Positions 54,621 through 63,927 are shown, counted from the stretch's first letter. The stretch is DNA of 64,000 nucleotides from an uncultured Chloroflexia bacterium (GCA_963814375.1 CAWFCQ010000003.1:64001-128000); one strand, 5' to 3'. Numbers and translations: made by a program. Notes: a model not told the origin generated them from the sequence alone.

Positions 54621-54770
54621 TGTGGCGGGATGAGCGTGGATCGGCGCCAGGGTCCCCCTGCTAGACTGTGATCGAGGCGCCCGCCTCGTGCAGCGTCTCG
54701 CCAACGATTGACAACATCGCGGACCGCGAGGTCCGCTCAGCAATCACCGCGCGTTGCGACCGGAGTGGAG

Positions 54771-55130
54771 ATGGATCACACCGGACTGCTCTACGTCATC
54801 GGTTTCGGGTTCGCCGCGACGACGTTCGTCTTCGGGACGATCCTGTTCAGCTGGCTGATCACCCATCGGCGCCGCAGCCCTCAGAAGGGCCTCCCGTACG
54901 AGTCGGGCGTCGACACCATCGGTGACACCTGGAGCCGGTTCGGACTGGCCTTCTATCTGTACGCCCTGCTCTTCGTGGCCTTCGACGTCGAGATCATCTT
55001 CGTCTACCTGTGGGCCATCACGGTGCGGGCCATCGAGTTCCAGGGGATCGTCCTGATCGGCATCTTCCTTGCGATCTTGATGTTCGGCGAGCTGTACGCG
55101 TGGAAGAAGGGGGACCTGCGATGGCAATAG
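54771..55130 (+). CDS. nuoA: NADH-quinone oxidoreductase subunit A
   Basis: [28 protein letters not shown]. Confidence 0.93.
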
Positions 55131-55801
55131 ACCGAACGCCTCCGAGCGGCCACACCGAACCGCCCACGTCCGGAACCGAGCTCGTCGCCAACGACGGCGG
55201 GGGGCAGATCATCATCCCCGAGGGCGCGGGCGACGCCGATCTGCTGCGCCCGTTCGGGATGGAGGAGCATCCGCAGGGCGGGTTCCACGGCCTGCTCGAG
55301 GTGATTCCGACCAAAGCCGACCTCATCCTCGACCTGATCCGGGCGAACTCGCTATGGCCGCTCCTCTCGGGCCTGTCGTGCTGCGCGATCGAGATGATGA
55401 GCACGGCCACGAGCGTCAACGACATCGACCGATTCGGCTCGTTTCCGTTCCGTGCCAGCCCGCGACAGGCCGATGTTCTGATCGTGGCGGGGACACTCAC
55501 GACCAAGATGGCCGGGCCGCTCGTGCGCCTCTGGGAGCAGATGCCCGAGCCGAAATGGGTCGTGGCGATGGGGACCTGCACGACATCCGGCGGCCGCTTC
55601 AAGCGCTCCTACTCGGTCGTCCAGGGAGTCGACCGGGTCATGCCCGTCGATGTCTACGTGCCGGGCTGCCCGCCGCGCCCGGAGGGCCTCATCTACGGGA
55701 TGATGAAGCTCCACGAGCTCGTGAAGCAGCGGCGCGGCGAATGGAGCACGTTCGTCGACCGCGGACCGCAGCGGACGCGCTGGGAAGGAGACGTTCGCTG
55801 A
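55121..55801 (+). CDS. nuoB: NADH-quinone oxidoreductase subunit B
   Basis: [29 protein letters not shown]. Confidence 0.95.
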
Positions 55802-56439
55802 GCACGCCCGCGACCGCAGGCTCGCTCGTCCGAACCCTCACCGAGCGCCTGGGCCCCGACGTCGGCGACCTCTGGACCGATGAGGACACCGTCGAGTTCT
55901 CGATCGACGGTGCGCGCAACCTCGAGGTCCTGGCGCAGCTGCGCGACGATCCCGACCTCGGCTTCTTCATGCTGGCCGACGAGGCTGCCGTGGACTACGG
56001 CGTCGGCGCCCACTTCGAGGTGGTGTATCACCTGTTCAGCTGGAAGCACCCCGCCTGGCTTCGCGTGCGCGCCAAGGTCGACCGCGCCGACCCGCGCATC
56101 CGCTCCGTTACCCACCTGTGGGAGGGCGCGATGTTTCACGAGCGCGAGGCCTACGACATGATGGGCATCGTGTTCGAAGGCAACCGCGACCTGCGCCGGA
56201 TCTACATGTCGCCCGACTACCGCAGCTTCCCGCAGCGTCGCGACTTCATCCTGCCCGACGACGCCGCCGACTCGCCCGCCGCCGGCGTCAATCCGCTGGA
56301 GCGACCGGAGACGTGGGACCTTGCCCGCTTCCGTGACGCGCCGGCGGTGACGTATCCACCCGCGTCCGAGCGTGAGGACGCGCCGGCCGAGCGGGTCGAG
56401 TCTGGCGAGACGCTGGCCGATCGGAGCCGGCCGCGATGA
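55798..56439 (+). CDS. nuoC: NADH-quinone oxidoreductase subunit C; probable CTG start
   Basis: [27 protein letters not shown]; CTGA overlap with nuoB stop. Confidence 0.88.
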
Positions 56440-57719
56440 CGACGACTGATCCGGAGGTCCGCATCCCGGACCCGATCGAGCTCGACCGGGCCGAGGAGGC
56501 CCGCCTGCGTGCCGCCTCCGGTTTGACGCCGCCCGTCGAGCGGCGGCCCGAGTACGCCGGCTTCGAGTCGGTCGGGATCCCGGACCGGCCGCCGCAGACG
56601 GACCGCGAGCGAGACGTCTACAGCCTCGAGGAGGGCGAGATGCTCCTCAACATGGGGCCACAGCATCCGTCCACCCACGGTGTCATGCGCCTGGTCGTGA
56701 AGGTGCGCGGCGAGGTCATCATCGACATCGACCCGGTGCTCGGCTACCTCCATCGCGGGATCGAGAAGCTGTGCGAGAACGCGACCTACACGACCGTGCT
56801 CACCTACGTCGACCCGATGGACTACCTCGGCACGATGCACAACGAACACGCCCCGGCCATCGCCTTCGAGAAGCTGTACGGCATCCGGCCGCCGAAGCGG
56901 GCCGAGTACATCCGCGCGCTGGTGGTGGAGCTGAACCGCATCTTCAGCCACGGCCTGATGATGGGCTTCCTGGCGCTCGACATGGGCGGGCTGACCCCGA
57001 TCCTCTACAGCTTCATCAACCGCGACGAGATCGTCGACATGCTGTCGGCCATCAGCGGACAGCGGATGCTCTTCAACTTCTTCCGCGTCGGCGGCGTGAA
57101 CTGGGACACCAACGACGAGTTCCTCTCGCGGCTGGGGACGTGGCGCGGCACCGTCATGAAGAACATCGAGATGAACGAGCGGATGATCACGGAGAACGAG
57201 ATCTTCACCGCCCGGACGCGCGGGATGGGCGTCCTGACCGGCGACGAGGCCATCTCGCTCGGTGTCACCGGCCCGAACCTGCGAGCGTCCGGCGTGCCGT
57301 TCGACGTGCGCAAGGCCCACCCGTACTCGATCTACCACGAGCTCGAGTTCGACGTCATCACCCACCAGACCGGCGACTCGTACGCCCGCTACCTCCAGCG
57401 CATCGCCGAGGTCAAGCAGAGCATCCACCTCATCGACCAGATCGTGGACCGCATGCCGCACGGCGCGGTGCAGGCCCAGGTGCCGGGCATCATTCGCCCC
57501 AAGCCGGGCCGCGCCTACGGCGCCGTCGAGTCGCCGCGCGGGCTCTACAGCGTCTACGCCATCAGCGATGGCGGGCCCAACCCGTATCGGTTCCGAATGC
57601 GCGACCCGTCGTTCATCAGCCTCCAGGCGCTGCCCAAGGTCATGCCAGGCAAGCTCATCGCCGACACGATGGCGGTGATGGCCAGCTTCGACCCGGTCAT
57701 GGGCGGCGTGGACAAGTAG
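56436..57719 (+). CDS. nuoD: NADH-quinone oxidoreductase subunit D
   Basis: NMGPQHPSTHGV, GYLHRG.EK, DY, ELNRI, GP.LRASG, ESPRG, D.V.GGVDK. Confidence 0.95.
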   Translation: MTTTDPEVRIPDPIELDRAEEARLRAASGLTPPVERRPEYAGFESVGIPDRPPQTDRERDVYSLEEGEMLLNMGPQHPSTHGVMRLVVKVRGEVIIDIDPVLGYLHRGIEKLCENATYTTVLTYVDPMDYLGTMHNEHAPAIAFEKLYGIRPPKRAEYIRALVVELNRIFSHGLMMGFLALDMGGLTPILYSFINRDEIVDMLSAISGQRMLFNFFRVGGVNWDTNDEFLSRLGTWRGTVMKNIEMNERMITENEIFTARTRGMGVLTGDEAISLGVTGPNLRASGVPFDVRKAHPYSIYHELEFDVITHQTGDSYARYLQRIAEVKQSIHLIDQIVDRMPHGAVQAQVPGIIRPKPGRAYGAVESPRGLYSVYAISDGGPNPYRFRMRDPSFISLQALPKVMPGKLIADTMAVMASFDPVMGGVDK

Positions 57720-57746: not shown

Positions 57747-58757
57747 ATGGACTGGGAGCTCGTCCTCGGCCTCGGGCGCTTCGTGCTTGCCACGACGCTG
57801 ATCCTGCTGCTCACCGTGCCGACCGCGTTCGTGATCATCCAGATGGAGATGAAGATCATCGCCCAGCTGGCGCTGCGCTTCGGGCCGAACCGGATCGGTC
57901 CGCGCGGCATTTTCCAGAGCACCATCCACGGCTTCAAGGTGCTCGCCAAGGAGGACACCGTCCCCGACCAGGCCGACCGGGTCGCCTTCACGATGGCCCC
58001 CTGGATGGTGTACATGGCGGCGGCGATGAGCATGCTCGTCATGCCCTTCGCGCCCGGGGCGATCGCGGCCGACATGAACATCGGCATCGTCTACTTCTTC
58101 GCCGTCCTCGGTCTCTCGGTGGTCGGCCTGCTCGTGGCCGGGTGGGCCAGCTACAACAAGTACTCGCTGCTCGGCGGGCTGCGCTCCGCGGCGCAGATGG
58201 TGAGCTACGAGATCCCGCTGACCCTGTCCATCGTCGGGGCGGTCGTCCTGGCCGGGACCCTCAGCTTCAGCGAGCTCATCGCCTGGCAGCTGGAGCACGG
58301 CTGGCTGCTCTGGTGGCAGCCGGTCGGCCTCGCCATCTTCTACGTCGCCAGCCTGGCCGAGATCAACCGCACTCCGTTCGACATGGTCGAGGCCGACAGC
58401 GAGCTGGTGGCGGGCCCGTTCACCGAGTACTCCGGGATGCGCTTCGGCTTCTTCTTCTTCGCTGAGTACGTCGCGCTGTTCATCATGAGCGGCATCCTCA
58501 TCAGCCTCTTCTTCGGCGGCTGGCTGGCGCCGTGGCCATTTCCGGCCCAGCTGGGCGGGTTCGCCGGGACGCTGTACGGCATCTTTTGGTTCTTCCTCAA
58601 GACCTACATCTTCGTGGCGATCGCGGTCTGGCTGCGCGGCACCCTGCCCCGCGTCCGGGTCGACCAGCTGATGGGCATGGCCTGGAAGGTCCTGCTGCCG
58701 CTGGCGCTCATCAACCTGTTCGTCACGGCCATCGCGGTCGTCGTCTTCGAGCTGTAG
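57747..58757 (+). CDS. nuoH: NADH-quinone oxidoreductase subunit H
   Basis: GPNRIGP, KY.LLGGLRSAAQM.SYE, AE.NRTPFD..EA.SELV, TLPR.R.DQ. Confidence 0.95.
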   Translation: MDWELVLGLGRFVLATTLILLLTVPTAFVIIQMEMKIIAQLALRFGPNRIGPRGIFQSTIHGFKVLAKEDTVPDQADRVAFTMAPWMVYMAAAMSMLVMPFAPGAIAADMNIGIVYFFAVLGLSVVGLLVAGWASYNKYSLLGGLRSAAQMVSYEIPLTLSIVGAVVLAGTLSFSELIAWQLEHGWLLWWQPVGLAIFYVASLAEINRTPFDMVEADSELVAGPFTEYSGMRFGFFFFAEYVALFIMSGILISLFFGGWLAPWPFPAQLGGFAGTLYGIFWFFLKTYIFVAIAVWLRGTLPRVRVDQLMGMAWKVLLPLALINLFVTAIAVVVFEL

Positions 58758-58769
58758 GAGGACGGACCG

Positions 58770-59609
58770 ATGGCGTTCCCCGGTGCCGGCATCGCCAAGG
58801 GCATGGCCACGACATTCCGCAACTTCTTCGCGCCCAAGGTGACGCGCCAGTACCCCGAGGAGCGGCCCCAGATCCCCGATCGCTGGCGCGGTCGGCTCGA
58901 CCTGATCTACGACCCCTTCGGCGAGCACAAGTGCGAGGTCTGCTTCCAGTGCGCGCAGGTCTGCCCGGTCGAGGCCATCGACATGAGCGGATTCGACTCG
59001 ACCGGGAACCGGATCCGATACGGCCTGCCCGAGATCTACGACGAGCGCAAGGACGCCAACGCCTACCGCCGAGCGGGTCTGCCGGCTCGGCCGATGCGCA
59101 ACGCCGCGCGCTGGGATGAGGCCGTCGACACGCCGTGGGTCGACGAGACGATCGACGCCTTCGGCGGCCGATCCGAGGCTCTGGTCGCGATCTTCCGGGC
59201 CGTCCAGGATCGCTACGGCTACCTGCCCGAGCATGCGCTGCGTCGGATCAGCGATCGGCTGACGATCCACTGGGCACAGGTCTTCGGCGCCGCCGGGCTG
59301 GGCGGCTTCCGCCTGCTCCCGGCCGGCGGCCACGTCATCACCGTGTGTGACTGTGCCGCCTGCCGCTTCGCGGGCGGCAGCGCGGTCCTGGCGGCGGTCG
59401 AGAGCGAGCTCGGCATCCGGGCGGGCGAGGAGACCCCGGACGGGACCTTCAGCCTGGAGCGCGGCACCGATGTCGGCGCGGGCTCGCTGAGCCCGGCGAT
59501 CCGCATCGACACCCTCGTATTCGGGCCGGTCGACGCCGCCAAGGCTCGGCACATCGTCGGAGAGCGCCGCGCCACCGCAGCGCGCCCTGCGAGCGGGGCC
59601 GTCAGCTGA
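58770..59609 (+). CDS. Fusion of NuoI N-terminal half and a degenerate NuoE-like domain
   Basis: T.QYPEE..RWRG..CEVCFQCAQVCPVEAI (single motif); then VQDRYGYLP, TVCDCAAC, TPDG.FSL. Confidence 0.85.
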   Translation: MAFPGAGIAKGMATTFRNFFAPKVTRQYPEERPQIPDRWRGRLDLIYDPFGEHKCEVCFQCAQVCPVEAIDMSGFDSTGNRIRYGLPEIYDERKDANAYRRAGLPARPMRNAARWDEAVDTPWVDETIDAFGGRSEALVAIFRAVQDRYGYLPEHALRRISDRLTIHWAQVFGAAGLGGFRLLPAGGHVITVCDCAACRFAGGSAVLAAVESELGIRAGEETPDGTFSLERGTDVGAGSLSPAIRIDTLVFGPVDAAKARHIVGERRATAARPASGAVS

Positions 59610-60961
59610 TGGCCAGCACGATCTCCCCCCAGATCAGCATTCTGCCCGGCGGCGAGCACCGCCTGCTGACCGACATCGGTCGGGTCGACCCTACGAGCCT
59701 CGCCAGCTATCGCGAGCGCGGCGGGTACGGCGGCCTCGAGCGTGCGGTCACACGCCTCGCTCCAGAGGAGGTCATCGGTGAAATCGAGGCAGCCGGGCTA
59801 CGCGGCCGCGGAGGCTCCGGCTACTCGACCGGCGCGAAGTGGCGCGTCGCGCGGGAGGCGCCCGGCGACCGCACGATCGTCGTCGCCAACCTCATGGGCG
59901 CGGATCCGAGCGCCCTCGGCGATCGGGCCCTGGCCGAGGGCAATCCGCACCTGGTCGTCGAGGGCGCGCTGATCGCCGCCTATGCCGTCGGAGCAACCGA
60001 GGCGATCATCGCCGTCCGCCGCGACTGGACCGATGCGATCGCGCGGCTCCGGGCCGCCGCGGCCGAGGCGACCGAGGCGCACCTGGCCGGCTACCTCGTG
60101 CTTGGCACCGACACGAGCATCCAGCTCAGCGTGTGGGAAGGGTCCGGGGCGTACGTCGCGGGAGAGGAGACAGCGCTGCTGAACGCCCTGGCCGGCGACC
60201 GCGGCATGCCGGCCATTCGTCCGCCGTATCCGGCCACGCGCGGCCTGGGAGACGCACCGACCGTCGTCCAGAACGGCGAGACCCTGGCGCATGTCGCGTG
60301 GATCCTGTCGCACTCGGCGGAGGCGTTCGCATCGGTCGGCAGCGCGGCCAGCCGGGGCACGAAGCTGGTCACGGTCATGGGGCGGGTCGGCGAGCCCGGC
60401 CTGGTCGAGGTCCCGCTGGGCACCTCGCTGCTCGACATCGTAACCCTCGCCGGCGGCGGCACCGGCGCGAGCAAGGCGGCCTTCGTGGGCGGGCCGGGCG
60501 GTGGCGCGATCGAGTCCGGCGCGTTCAGCGGCACGCCATACGACTACGAGGCGCTCGAGGCCGCCGGCGCGATCATCGGCTCGGGCGCCGTCCTCGTGGT
60601 GGATGCGGCAACCTGCATGGTCGACAGCGCTCGATTCTTCGTCGACTTCAGCGCCCGAGAGGCGTGCGGCAAGGCCGTCCCGTGCCGCATCGGTACCAAG
60701 CGCCTGGTCGAGGGGCTCGACCGCATCCTGGCCGGGACGCCCCGACCGAACGACTTCAATCTTCTCCGCGAGCTCTCGCGCAAGATGAGCGACACGGCGC
60801 TGTGCAAGCTCGAGCGCCTGGCGCCGGGACCGATCCTCACGACGCTCGATCGGTTCGGCGACGAGTACCGGGCGCATGCCGAGCGCGGCGAGTGCCTGGC
60901 CGGCGCCTGCGCCACCGGCGGGCTGCCGCCCCTCATCTCCCCGTTGGCCGGGCTAGAGTAG
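59609..60961 (+). CDS. nuoF: NuoF/HydB-like flavoprotein subunit, degenerate
   Basis: GLRGRGG, GAY..GEETAL, GTKL, GGPGGG, CGKAVPCRIG. Confidence 0.8.
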   Translation: MASTISPQISILPGGEHRLLTDIGRVDPTSLASYRERGGYGGLERAVTRLAPEEVIGEIEAAGLRGRGGSGYSTGAKWRVAREAPGDRTIVVANLMGADPSALGDRALAEGNPHLVVEGALIAAYAVGATEAIIAVRRDWTDAIARLRAAAAEATEAHLAGYLVLGTDTSIQLSVWEGSGAYVAGEETALLNALAGDRGMPAIRPPYPATRGLGDAPTVVQNGETLAHVAWILSHSAEAFASVGSAASRGTKLVTVMGRVGEPGLVEVPLGTSLLDIVTLAGGGTGASKAAFVGGPGGGAIESGAFSGTPYDYEALEAAGAIIGSGAVLVVDAATCMVDSARFFVDFSAREACGKAVPCRIGTKRLVEGLDRILAGTPRPNDFNLLRELSRKMSDTALCKLERLAPGPILTTLDRFGDEYRAHAERGECLAGACATGGLPPLISPLAGLE

Positions 60962-60967
60962 GCCGCG

Positions 60968-63355
60968 ATGAGCTTCGGCACGACGAACGGCCACCCCACC
61001 AACGGCAATGGCGCCGGTGACGGCAAGGTCACCGACTACACGCCTATCTGGCCGATGGTGCCCGGGACCCGGAAGATCGCCGTCACCATCAACGGCGCCC
61101 AGGTCGAGGCCGAGGAGGGCCAGACCATCCTCCAGGCCTGCCGGGTGCTCGGCATCGAGGTCCCGACGCTGTGCTACGAGCCGAAGCTGGCGCCCTACGG
61201 GGCATGCCGCATCTGCGCGGTTGAGGTCGAGGGCCAGGACGACACGCCGATCTCGTGCGGTACCGCGATCACCGAGGGGATGGTCATCACCACCCACTCC
61301 GACCGGGTCGTCGAGAACCGTCGGATGGTGCTCGAGCTCATCTTCAGTGACCACGACGCGTACTGCCTGCCGCCCTGCCAGTTCAAGTGCCCGACCCGGG
61401 TCGACATTCCGGGCTACCTGAAGCAGAACACCCTGGGCAACTGGGAGGAGGCGACGCGCATCCTGAAGCGCTCCCTCCCGTTCCCGGCCATCCTCGGCCG
61501 CGTCTGCCCGGCGCCGTGCGAGACGCACTGCCGGCGCGAGGAAGTCGACACCGCCATCGCCATCCGCGACTCGCATCGGTACTGCGCCGACCGTGTGCTC
61601 GAAGTCGACGCTCCCGCGCCGATCCCGTGGCCGAAGGAGCCGGACACCGGGCGTCGAGTCGCGGTCATCGGCGCCGGCCCGGCCGGCATGAGCGTCGCCT
61701 ACTATCTCCAGCTGCGCGGGCACCACTGCGACGTCTTCGAGGCCGATCCTGAGCAGGGCGGCATGCTCCGCTACGGGATCCCGCAGTACCGCCTGCCGAA
61801 GGGCTGGATGGACCGCGAGCTCAACCACGTGTGGGAGCTGGGCGCGACCTTCCGCCCGAACATGCGGCTCGGGCGCGACTTCCATCTCGGCGACATCATC
61901 GACGAGTACGACGCGATCTACGTCGGCATCGGCTGCTACAAGCCGAACGAGCTCGGGATCCCGGGCGAGGAAGCCGACGGCATGGTCAACGCGTTGGAGA
62001 ACCTCTACAACTCGACGCGCGGAATTCCCGTGCCGCGGCTGAAGGGCGCGCGGGTGGTCGTCATCGGCGGGGGCTTCACGGCCATCGACTGCACGCGGAC
62101 CTCGGTGCGTCAGGGCGCCGCGGAGGTGACGCTCGTCTACCGCCGCGACCTGAAGGACATGCCCGCCGCGGACGAGGCGCACGAGGCGATCGAGGAGGGA
62201 GCGCGCCTCATCTTCCAGGCGGCGCCTACACGCATCGTCACCGACAACAAGAACAAGGTCACCGGCGTCGAGTTCCAGCGCATGAAGCTGGGCGAGCCGG
62301 ACGCCCAGGGCCGCCGCCGACCGGAGCCGATGCCGGGCACCGAGTTCATCGTCGAGTGCGACACCGTCCTCGGCGCCATCGGCCAGGGTCCGGAGCTGTC
62401 CTGGATCGAGTCGGAGCCCGACGAGCTCAAGGCCGGCCTCGAGGTCGACCGCCGCGGCAACCTCGTCAGCGAGGAGCACATCTTCCGCACCAACGTGCCG
62501 AAGATCTTCGCCTCCGGCGACGTGCGCACCGGCGCCGCCACCGTGGTGGAAGCGATCGGCGAGGGTCGCCGCGCCTCGTACGCGATGGACTACTGGCTGC
62601 GCGGCCACGACCTCGACGACCCGCAGGTGCGGCGCATCGTCACCGAGCCGCAGCCCAACTTCCTCACGATCGTGCCCTTCACCGACGACGTGAAGGAGCC
62701 GCGGGCGATCATGGGCAAGCAGGAGGCGGACGAGCGCAAGGGCAACTTCAACGAGTACGAGTTCGGCTACACCGGCGACCAGGCCATGGCCGAGGCGTCG
62801 CGCTGCCTCCAGTGCACCTGTGAGGCGATCGGCCACTGCGACCTGCGCGAGGCGGCGATCGAGTACGAGACGACGCTCAACATGGCGATCGACGAGCGCT
62901 CGATCCAGGACAACCCGTACGTCGGCGTCAACCACGGCTACGGCCGCGACGAGACCCACTCCTTCATCCTGCGCGACTACTCGCGCTGCATCGACTGCGG
63001 TCGATGCGCCCAGGTGTGCAAGGAGATCGTCGGCGCCGGCTGCTATGACTTCATCGGCAAGGGCTTCGACTCGCTGGTCACCACCGCCGACTACGTCAGC
63101 CTCAACGAGACGCCGTGCGTTTCCTGCGGCCGATGCGCGGAGACCTGCCCCGTCGGCGCCCTCATGCCGCGCCCGCGCATCCTCGAGACCTACCAGCTCG
63201 ACGTGTCGCGCTGCATCTTCTGCGGCATCTGCGCCGATGCCTGCCCGTACGACGCCCTGCGCTGCGGCCCCGAGTTCGAGTTCAGCGAGTATCAGCGCGA
63301 CCTGCCCATGCTCGACATCCTCGAGATGTCCGACCGGGAGCGACCTACCCGCTAG
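60968..63355 (+). CDS. NuoG-N/GltD-like FAD-NADPH/2[4Fe-4S] fusion capped by the NuoI C-terminal half
   Basis: 2Fe-2S TLC..GACRIC..SC; PPC..CP, GRVCPAPCE..C; GAGPAG; GGGFTAID..YRR; CIDCGRC/CVSCGRC; final RCIFCGICADACP.DAL..PEFE. Confidence 0.88.
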   Translation: MSFGTTNGHPTNGNGAGDGKVTDYTPIWPMVPGTRKIAVTINGAQVEAEEGQTILQACRVLGIEVPTLCYEPKLAPYGACRICAVEVEGQDDTPISCGTAITEGMVITTHSDRVVENRRMVLELIFSDHDAYCLPPCQFKCPTRVDIPGYLKQNTLGNWEEATRILKRSLPFPAILGRVCPAPCETHCRREEVDTAIAIRDSHRYCADRVLEVDAPAPIPWPKEPDTGRRVAVIGAGPAGMSVAYYLQLRGHHCDVFEADPEQGGMLRYGIPQYRLPKGWMDRELNHVWELGATFRPNMRLGRDFHLGDIIDEYDAIYVGIGCYKPNELGIPGEEADGMVNALENLYNSTRGIPVPRLKGARVVVIGGGFTAIDCTRTSVRQGAAEVTLVYRRDLKDMPAADEAHEAIEEGARLIFQAAPTRIVTDNKNKVTGVEFQRMKLGEPDAQGRRRPEPMPGTEFIVECDTVLGAIGQGPELSWIESEPDELKAGLEVDRRGNLVSEEHIFRTNVPKIFASGDVRTGAATVVEAIGEGRRASYAMDYWLRGHDLDDPQVRRIVTEPQPNFLTIVPFTDDVKEPRAIMGKQEADERKGNFNEYEFGYTGDQAMAEASRCLQCTCEAIGHCDLREAAIEYETTLNMAIDERSIQDNPYVGVNHGYGRDETHSFILRDYSRCIDCGRCAQVCKEIVGAGCYDFIGKGFDSLVTTADYVSLNETPCVSCGRCAETCPVGALMPRPRILETYQLDVSRCIFCGICADACPYDALRCGPEFEFSEYQRDLPMLDILEMSDRERPTR

Positions 63356-63555: not shown

Positions 63556-63927
63556 TCAGAACTTGTTCAGGTTGACCTGCCACTCGTCGCAGTCGCTGAC
63601 GACGGTGATGGTGTACTCGCCCTCGATCAGGTCGTTCACGAACGAGGTCGTGACGCGCTGCTGCTGCTCGTAGGTGAAGCCACCGTCGACCGAGGTGATC
63701 GAGACGACGACGTCCTCGCAGGTTGGTGCGGTGTACGAGAGGCGGTAGCGACCTGCCTGAAGCGGGAACGTCGTCCCCTCCTCGTCCTCCGACGTCGCTC
63801 TCGCGGCCTCGGGAAATTCCGAGGCGCCGTCATCGCCGCCTCCGCCACCACCACCTCCGCCGCACGCGGCGAGAAGCACGGTCAACGAAAGGAGCGCGAG
63901 CAGCGTGGTCCGTCTCAGCATCTCCAC
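63556..63927 (-). CDS. Small lipoprotein
   Basis: Lipobox LAAC, poly-Gly linker, beta-rich domain with 2 Cys; GGAGG RBS. Confidence 0.75.
   Translation of the reverse strand: MEMLRRTTLLALLSLTVLLAACGGGGGGGGGDDGASEFPEAARATSEDEEGTTFPLQAGRYRLSYTAPTCEDVVVSITSVDGGFTYEQQQRVTTSFVNDLIEGEYTITVVSDCDEWQVNLNKF

Follow-up and report, generated by a model that had tools for sequence, protein, structure and literature searches.

Complex I is among the best-studied bioenergetic enzymes, and its NuoI subunit (TYKY or NDUFS8) is known as one polypeptide with two clusters. This is also so in Fpo with FpoF and in the cyanobacterial NDH-1 with ferredoxin, which have an 11-subunit core (A-B-C-D-H-I-J-K-L-M-N) and a donor other than NuoEFG at NuoI: the donor docks non-covalently, and NuoI, FpoI, or NdhI is a single chain. 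Here we describe a complex I locus from an uncultured Chloroflexia bacterium in which the NuoI sequence is spread over two proteins, at the two ends of a three-gene cassette. The stretch of DNA that we analysed (the window) is 64,000 nucleotides long (CAWFCQ010000003.1:64001-128000 of GCA_963814375.1, or G000:C3:64001-128000, where G000 is the source genome), and we refer to the three genes 3' of nuoH as P6, P7, and P8.

Among solved structures, the best matches for P6, P7, and P8 are the soluble, electron-bifurcating Nfn-Bfu/Stn transhydrogenases (9BOV, 8OH5, and 9N5U), and these are the closest kin of the insert. 9BOV and 9BP5 are NfnABC from C. saccharolyticus (PMC11829005), and 8OH5 is StnABC from S. 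ovata (PMC10482914). The electron path described for Nfn runs from NADPH to the flavin adenine dinucleotide (FAD) of a GltD-like domain, through clusters A7-A6-A3-A2-A1, and on to a site formed by B1, flavin mononucleotide (FMN), and C1; clusters A4 and A5 form a dead-end branch towards an Fdh-like domain (PMC11829005). The counterpart of this branch in Stn is C1/C2 (PMC10482914). Homologues without clusters B2-B5 are described as non-bifurcating, and deletion of B3/B4 abolished bifurcation (PMC11829005).

Larger enzymes with such modules have been predicted. Schut et al. (2022) predict Nuo-Bfu, Por-Bfu, and Mbh-Bfu enzymes, of which Nuo-Bfu has 14 subunits and a bifurcating BfuB and is placed in Deferribacteres, Proteobacteria, Planctomycetes, and Nitrospirae (PMC9304861). 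Like our locus, Nuo-Bfu is proposed to be a quinone reductase that pumps protons and has a Bfu-type module where NuoEFG would be, and its Bfu genes have nuo genes on either side. The main text of that paper (as distinct from its supplement) has no occurrence of "NuoI" and mentions neither a split subunit nor GltD in the context of Nuo-Bfu. In a different arrangement, Degli Esposti (2015) reports a gltD-related flavoprotein that replaces NuoI in mbx-like operons (PMC4758237). An earlier note on this DNA, made from the sequence alone, had said that no complex I of such architecture was known to its author. Likewise, in a search that stopped short of supplements and subscription journals, we found no published account of NuoI in two pieces or of a complex I that bears GltD.

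NuoI as two half-ferredoxins

We propose that this locus encodes the single functional respiratory complex I of G000, that the enzyme is of a non-bifurcating NADPH (possibly also NADH):quinone type, and that its N6a and N6b clusters lie between two proteins. We put the probability of this reading at about 0.62. A cassette of three genes, derived from Nfn-Bfu/Stn, would sit inside nuoI, and NuoI would be made as two half-ferredoxins on the first and last of the cassette proteins. These halves would dock on NuoB, NuoD, and NuoH and would jointly ligate N6a and N6b, with cysteines from both proteins.

The three genes lie on the + strand, as do all the features below unless noted otherwise. P6 (58770..59609, 279 amino acids) is a NuoI N-terminal half joined by a conserved linker to a NuoE-like domain; P7 (59609..60961, 450 amino acids) is a NuoF/BfuB-like core (PF01512 and PF10589); and P8 (60968..63355, 795 amino acids) has a NuoG-type N-terminal [2Fe-2S] domain, a GltD domain (FAD/NADPH), a NuoG-type ferredoxin, and the NuoI C-terminal half. 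The earlier note had described the gene after nuoH as opening like NuoI, with one CxxCxxCxxxCP motif, and then turning into NuoE. This is what we find: residues 11-81 of P6 (58800..59012) match positions 1-70 of the 121 positions of TIGR01971 (E = 1.4e-15) and include the first and only such motif in this protein (C55, C58, C61, and C65-P66), and residues 125-264 (59142..59561) match PF01257 (E = 3e-25). It had also placed the missing half of NuoI at the C-terminus of the third gene, near 63170-63355. These coordinates are right, as residues 737-778 of P8 (63176..63301) match positions 71-112 of TIGR01971 and include the second CxxCxxCxxxCP motif.

Both halves resemble NuoI when they are considered by themselves. 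If the N-terminal 100 residues of P6 are scanned alone, then NuoI models rank first (60.0 bits). For the last 71 residues of P8, seven NuoI models rank first (TIGR01971, 49.8 bits, E = 2.2e-13), and the generic ferredoxin model FdxA_fam is orders of magnitude worse (E = 4.5e-7), so this segment is NuoI-like and not a generic ferredoxin. The rough sum of the halves is 60.0 + 49.8 bits, as compared to the cut-off of 113.05 bits for a whole NuoI (TIGR01971). In a search of the PDB with the C-terminal half, the top matches over a single stretch are TYKY/NuoI chains (about 48-51 bits); polyferredoxins outrank these only because eight weak repeats, each at about 20 bits, are added up. The halves also fit together on an intact NuoI from another genome of the same genus, G075 (locus L177), where residues 10-70 of P6 align to frame residues 413-474 and residues 725-777 of P8 align to 480-532. 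The two alignments abut within 5 residues, at the loop between the cysteine motifs.

All eight of the NuoI-type cysteines, one motif per protein, are invariant: C55, C58, C61, C65, and P66 in 48 of 48 P6-type sequences, and C749, C752, C755, C759, and P760 in 53 of 53 P8-type sequences. In 2[4Fe-4S] ferredoxins, each cluster has three of its cysteine ligands in one motif and the fourth ligand in the other. Because the eight cysteines are invariant and this ligation pattern is the textbook one, we infer that N6a and N6b are each ligated by both P6 and P8. The linker that follows the N-terminal half (P6 residues 82-115; 59013..59114) is also highly conserved, with most positions at least 90% conserved in 81 sequences.

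The earlier note had named an intact nuoI elsewhere as part of what would count against its reading; we looked for one and found none in G000, which is a draft of 8 contigs and 2.52 Mb that is 89% complete. In a profile search of this genome, no protein reaches the cut-off of 113.05 bits; the best matches to TIGR01971 cover positions 1-70 (58.4 bits) and positions 71-112 (47.5 bits) and are on separate proteins. G000 has one nuoH, one NuoF-type gene (the sole match to PF01512), one NuoE-type gene, and three antiporter-like subunits, all of which are inside this operon. Across the class, an intact NuoI above the cut-off was found in 5 of 151 genomes (including seven unpublished genomes) and in none of the other 146. 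G075 has a second, canonical nuoA-N operon with intact NuoI (L177 = G075:C2:1500-21400) beside the split one, and its canonical subunits are 30-57% identical to those in the window.

Relatives of the cassette in nuo and por operons

The earlier note had suggested a search for the same split and synteny in related genomes. We scanned for related loci with one genome per species, which gave 158 confirmed stretches, and we retained 80 for analysis. All 80 are colinear on one strand (nuoD in 74, nuoH in 77, P6 in 80, P7 in 80, P8 in 71, and nuoJ in 34), and both fusion junctions recur across these loci, which come from independent assemblies of different species. The P8 match extends to at least residue 789 in 50 of the 71 loci with P8; the rest are at contig ends or were aligned piecewise. 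The labels of the 80 loci are mostly Limnocylindria, Chloroflexota, or uncultured Chloroflexia, with one Binatia, one Angelobacter, four Steroidobacteraceae, and two "uncultured bacterium", and the titles of the records point to metagenome-assembled genomes from soil and other environments. At the protein level, 543 relatives of the P6 fusion were found at E <= 1e-5 among 8000 candidates scored. The 120 that were listed are 273-289 amino acids long, cover at least 94% of the query, are 79-89% identical to it, and represent full-length protein clusters with the junctions kept in all 120. No sequencing run contained at least half of the words of the locus (the best share was 0.29, and six RNA runs had 0.07-0.12), and we base no conclusion on the RNA runs.

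These data bear on whether the split could result from faulty assembly, from a frameshift, or from the decay of a pseudogene. We found nothing in favor of this, and the source genome is a draft. Identical junctions in the 80 loci and the 120 clusters, open reading frames throughout, and a ratio of nonsynonymous to synonymous substitution rates (dN/dS) of 0.07-0.19 for every part (as compared to ten orthologues) all argue against it, and we reject it as having a negligible probability. Of all the parts, the NuoI halves evolve most slowly.

In a sample of the phylum (401 genomes, two of which are unpublished), 44 matches start at residue 1-3, and all of these are in families f1 (17, including G000), f3 (23), and f4 (4) of the class. 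Among the best 150 matches (191 weaker ones lie beyond), none from outside the class starts before residue 51. The order nuoD-nuoH-P6-P7-P8-nuoJ-nuoK is unchanged in the loci that we obtained from f3 and f4. In family f2 (L178 and L179; G004:C8 and G001:C9), the peripheral-arm genes nuoB-nuoD-P6-like-P7-P8 form a cluster of their own, with phosphatase and methyltransferase genes on its flanks; the P6-like gene is a weaker match, the sole nuoH is on another contig, and we saw no nuoC separating nuoB from nuoD. This family groups the cassette with the quinone module independently of the f1 operon.

More distant relatives are linked to another enzyme. With P0174 (about 30% identical to P6) as the query, we obtained 80 metagenome loci, of which we examined the 27 that are longer than 9 kb. 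Genes similar to P6, P7, and P8 are adjacent in all 27, and in none of them is there a nuo gene within 8 kb. One such locus (L104, 5784-13926; also L095-L168) is a pyruvate oxidoreductase operon that begins with porG, porD, and porA and continues with a half-ferredoxin::NuoE fusion, a full BfuB-type NuoF, and a NuoG-N::GltD::ferredoxin::NuoI-like half::PorB fusion. The NuoI-like half matches positions 69-120 of TIGR01971 (E = 1.3e-14). This type is the Por-Bfu that was predicted by Schut et al. (2022; PMC9304861). It shares all three cassette proteins with the window, including the half-ferredoxin that is N-terminal to the NuoE-like domain and the NuoI-like half after the NuoG-type clusters. 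It differs in that the C-terminal half is followed by PorB, the cassette lies between porA and porB, BfuB is full length, and the N-terminal half lacks positions 1-35 of the NuoI model, which P6 has.

The earlier note had explained the split by insertion of a three-gene oxidoreductase into nuoI. The genes do lie between the two halves, but insertion is not the sole possible history, as the cassettes of por operons carry the halves too. The half-ferredoxin ends thus move together with the cassette, and either nuoI or por could have been its first host.

The Por-linked loci, as relatives of about 30-37% identity that bear NuoI-like halves with no nuo gene nearby, also raise the possibility that P6-P7-P8 are a soluble Nfn/Stn-like enzyme in their own right, which happens to be encoded within the operon, and that the split ferredoxin is a part of the cassette and not the NuoI of complex I. 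We consider this to be very unlikely. No other NuoI was found in G000; P6 retains the NuoI-specific model positions 1-35 that the Por-linked form lacks; f2 clusters nuoB-nuoD with P6-P7-P8; and the NuoI halves evolve more slowly than any other part.

Proposed electron input through GltD and the state of the flavin branch

P8 matches 9bov_A (E = 1.5e-167, over P8 residues 35-759), 8oh5_C (E = 1.7e-152), and 9n5u_A (E = 4.6e-141). Like BfuA of Nfn-Bfu/Stn, it has a [2Fe-2S] domain, a GltD insertion, and NuoG-type clusters, and all of its Fe-S (iron-sulfur) ligands that align with NfnA, up to the A4-type motif, are invariant. The [2Fe-2S] domain at the N-terminus is of the NuoG/HydA type (residues 35-111; 61070..61300; PF13510, E = 2.3e-19) with invariant C69, C80, C83, and C97. 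The GltD/NfnL-type domain (residues 134-546; 61367..62605; PF14691 and PF07992; NF009454, 549.8 bits) has two [4Fe-4S] sites, an FAD site, and a YRR motif, which we take to be of the NADPH type; 65% of its positions are invariant in 49 orthologues. The NuoG-type ferredoxin-like domain (residues 667-732; 62966..63163; PF22117) lies in a stretch, residues 661-735, with 89% of positions invariant. Unlike the solved chains, which are 963-1178 residues long, P8 ends at residue 795, with the NuoI C-terminal half in place of the Fdh-like C-terminal domain that holds A5 and mediates tetramer formation in Nfn-Bfu/Stn. Also unlike Nfn-Bfu/Stn, the cassette is within the operon of a membrane complex and is fused to the halves of NuoI.

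Comparative rates point to GltD as the essential electron input. We favor the GltD route on the basis of the invariant Fe-S ligands of P8 and of these comparisons: median identity across related loci is 92% for P8, 80% for P6, and 77% for P7; the invariant share is 63-89% for the domains of P8 and 18% for P7; and dN is 0.049 for GltD as compared to 0.12 for both P7 and the NuoE-like part, so these two evolve at two to three times the rate of GltD. In the path that we propose, NADPH would reduce the FAD of the GltD domain, the two [4Fe-4S] clusters of GltD would pass electrons to the NuoG-type clusters, and they would leave by what is a dead-end branch in the soluble enzymes (A2-A4-N6a-N6b-N2-quinone) and so drive the NuoL/M/N pump. 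The cassette would be a plain dehydrogenase that has lost the requirements for bifurcation. Its NuoF-like flavin branch, under weaker constraint, may admit or release the electrons of NADH.

The earlier note had called the insert a NuoE-F-G/GltD module. A three-gene oxidoreductase with GltD is indeed present, but it is of the Nfn-Bfu/Stn type and is not a canonical NuoE-F-G, and the NuoE and NuoF parts cannot be read as ordinary subunits, as they are trimmed and partly degenerate. The NuoE part of P6 has PDB matches to 9BOV C, 8OH5 A, and 9N5U C, and also to HydC. An alignment to HydC-type chains shows that the first pair of [2Fe-2S] cysteines is kept (CDCAAC) and that the second pair is replaced by D and G, so that, unlike BfuC, it keeps two of the four C1 cysteines. 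In other families of the class, this site retains three or two cysteines, or the thioredoxin-like domain has been lost altogether, and the NuoE part is truncated in L171 (225 amino acids), L172 (186 amino acids), and f2 (239 amino acids, with no Pfam match to NuoE). The loss of these cysteines is derived, as three distant fusions (P0144, P0147, and P0174) retain all four. The P6-like matches in f3 (for instance in G014, G047, G029, G008, G050, G002, and G062) often have one or two in-frame TGA codons in the NuoE-like part, or end early there (frames of 199-241 amino acids). The NuoI N-terminal half is spared, a pattern suggestive of gradual decay of the NuoE domain in this family.

P7 matches 9BOV B (E = 4.2e-121), 8OH5 B (E = 1.6e-117), and 9N5U B (E = 1.9e-117), but it aligns only to residues 106-524 of the 584 residues of 9bov_B. 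The N-terminal thioredoxin-like domain and the C-terminal ferredoxin domain, which bear B2-B5 in the bifurcating BfuB, are absent, and unlike the Por-linked relative, P7 has no Fer4 or PF01257 match in a Pfam scan. The motif NADEGDPGAF, which is conserved in the three Bfu B chains that we aligned, reads NLMGADPSAL in P7 and is also altered in four other class loci. The N3/B1 motif CGKCxxC reads CGKAVPC, which leaves three of the four B1 cysteines; CxxAxxC is the kind of pattern usually seen at [3Fe-4S] sites.

Could the cassette still be a bifurcating or confurcating Bfu in the sense of Nuo-Bfu, coupling NAD(P)H and ferredoxin to quinone reduction? The closest solved relatives do bifurcate, Nuo-Bfu is predicted in other phyla (PMC9304861), P0144, P0147, and P0174 have four NuoE cysteines, and BfuB is complete in the Por-linked relative. 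Yet C1 has two of four cysteines here, B1 has three of four, and the B2-B5 domains are missing. Since homologues without B2-B5 are non-bifurcating and deletion of B3/B4 abolishes bifurcation (PMC11829005), we do not expect bifurcation, and we reject this explanation as highly improbable.

Several observations count against our proposal. Structure prediction lends no support to docking via shared clusters: the single-chain model of P6 is confident for the NuoE-like domain only and has a predicted local distance difference test (pLDDT) score below 50 at residues 34-114, and the model of P8 is poor (mean pLDDT of 55, and below 50 at residues 613-795) and was not used. The low scores in P6 may reflect a shallow alignment as much as an absent partner. 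A second nuo operon in G000, like that of G075, is conceivable given that the genome is 89% complete. NADPH specificity is predicted from the YRR motif of GltD-type proteins and from homology. And by sequence the flavin branch is not dead: P7 retains the FMN-loop motifs GRGG and GEET; its N3-like motif is almost invariant and is among its most conserved stretches; all four N3 cysteines are present in f2 and in locus L173; the P8 [2Fe-2S] domain that leads to this branch is 63% invariant; and the dN/dS of P7 (0.19) indicates purifying selection. NADH could thus be a genuine substrate, and perhaps the principal one.

These features of the flavin branch, along with the lack of another NuoF-type gene in G000, are what we would expect if NADH, via the FMN of the NuoF-like protein, was the main or an equal input to the same architecture. 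GltD would then admit NADPH as a second fuel, or would turn the head into a built-in NADH/NADPH transhydrogenase that shares its Fe-S chain with the route to quinone. We consider this to be rather unlikely, though it is the rival that we take most seriously. The NADEGDPGAF motif is replaced in the window and altered in the four other class loci, the dN of P7 and the NuoE-like part is two to three times that of GltD, and some families have a truncated NuoE part. Also, G000 encodes PntB, the beta subunit of a proton-translocating NAD(P) transhydrogenase (G000:C7:143787-145145, - strand, 607 bits), and this enzyme may be what connects the pools of NADH and NADPH.

The surrounding operon and what the arrangement may mean

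By ORF (open reading frame) calling, Pfam, and NCBIfam, the order on the + strand at 54.7-63.4 kb is nuoA-B-C-D-H and then P6, P7, and P8, and nuoJ, nuoK, nuoL, nuoM (assigned by PF00361), and nuoN follow past the end of the window (C3:128096-134124). Subunits A-D, H, and J-N of the core are therefore all encoded in one place, and the full order is A-B-C-D-H-[P6-P7-P8]-J-K-L-M-N, which is an operon of the 11-subunit type with three additional genes at the expected position of nuoI. nuoA is at 54708..55130 (PF00507, E = 1.6e-29; its start codon is uncertain), nuoD is at 56436..57719 (PF00346, E = 6.7e-84; NF004739, 415 bits versus a cut-off of 360), and nuoH, the sole copy in G000, is at 57747..58757 (PF00146, E = 1e-106). 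The longest ORFs for nuoB (55010..55801, 263 amino acids; TIGR01957, 221 bits versus a cut-off of 142.7; domain at residues 98-242) and nuoC (55354..56439, 361 amino acids; PF00329, E = 6.3e-35) begin within the preceding genes, with about 100-150 extra residues at the N-terminus. The family matches begin at residue 98 (nuoB) and at about residue 155 (nuoC), so the real starts are probably further downstream. The translation of nuoB has the four N2-type cysteines (CC...C...C), in SCCAIEM, GTC, and GCPP (within PGCPP). GGAGGA lies 6 nt 5' of the ATG of P6, the stop of P6 overlaps the ATG of P7 (TGATG), and P7 and P8 are separated by 6 nt.

The locus shares its membrane and quinone-module subunits with the canonical 14-subunit complex I (T. 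thermophilus Nqo1-15, E. coli, and the mitochondrial core), as well as the NuoI sequence, the N2 cysteines of NuoB, and the NuoE, NuoF, and NuoG-N homologies. Unlike in the canonical enzyme, NuoI spans two polypeptides, and P8 has a GltD insertion and lacks the C-terminal molybdopterin-like domain of NuoG. The canonical E, F, and G genes lie between nuoD and nuoH, whereas here their counterparts are inside nuoI. The equivalog models for NuoE, NuoF, and NuoG score below their cut-offs (TIGR01958, 64.4 versus 142.4 bits; TIGR01959, 333.5 versus 558.65 bits; and TIGR01973, 98.5 versus 470.05 bits). This is a complex I with a non-canonical input module that falls outside of the canonical N-module, single-chain NuoI, and bifurcating Bfu families, since one defining feature of each was looked for and is absent.

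The operon is variable between P8 and nuoJ, which are 72 to 1920 nt apart in 31 loci. In the window, this gap contains an ORF on the - strand (63556-63927, 123 amino acids) with a signal peptide, a lipobox-like LAAC, and then a glycine run; it has no Pfam match, and a homologue is present in 9 of the 80 related loci. On the 3' side of nuoN are otsA for trehalose-6-phosphate synthase (PF00982) and then, on the other strand, the phosphatase otsB (PF02358; L010 17129-19672).

More tentatively, and with the odds somewhat against it, we suggest that the cassette acts as a portable "plug" for electron input and brings its socket along, in the form of NuoI-type ferredoxin halves at its ends, and that it is used in both complex I and pyruvate oxidoreductase. 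In Limnocylindria, it would have been stripped down to give a pump that is driven mainly by NADPH, with N6a and N6b between polypeptides.

If our proposal is correct, then a whole class of uncultured Chloroflexota would make the NuoI segment of the electron wire from two fusion proteins, fed by a GltD-type NADPH flavoprotein. A fuel inlet would then be connected to the proton pump in a manner not described before. It would be a second, independent route by which complex I gained an electron-input head, and it would explain why these genomes would be scored by annotation pipelines as lacking nuoI, nuoE, and nuoG. It would also provide natural examples of an NADPH-driven proton pump and of a split two-cluster ferredoxin that serves as a covalent docking device.

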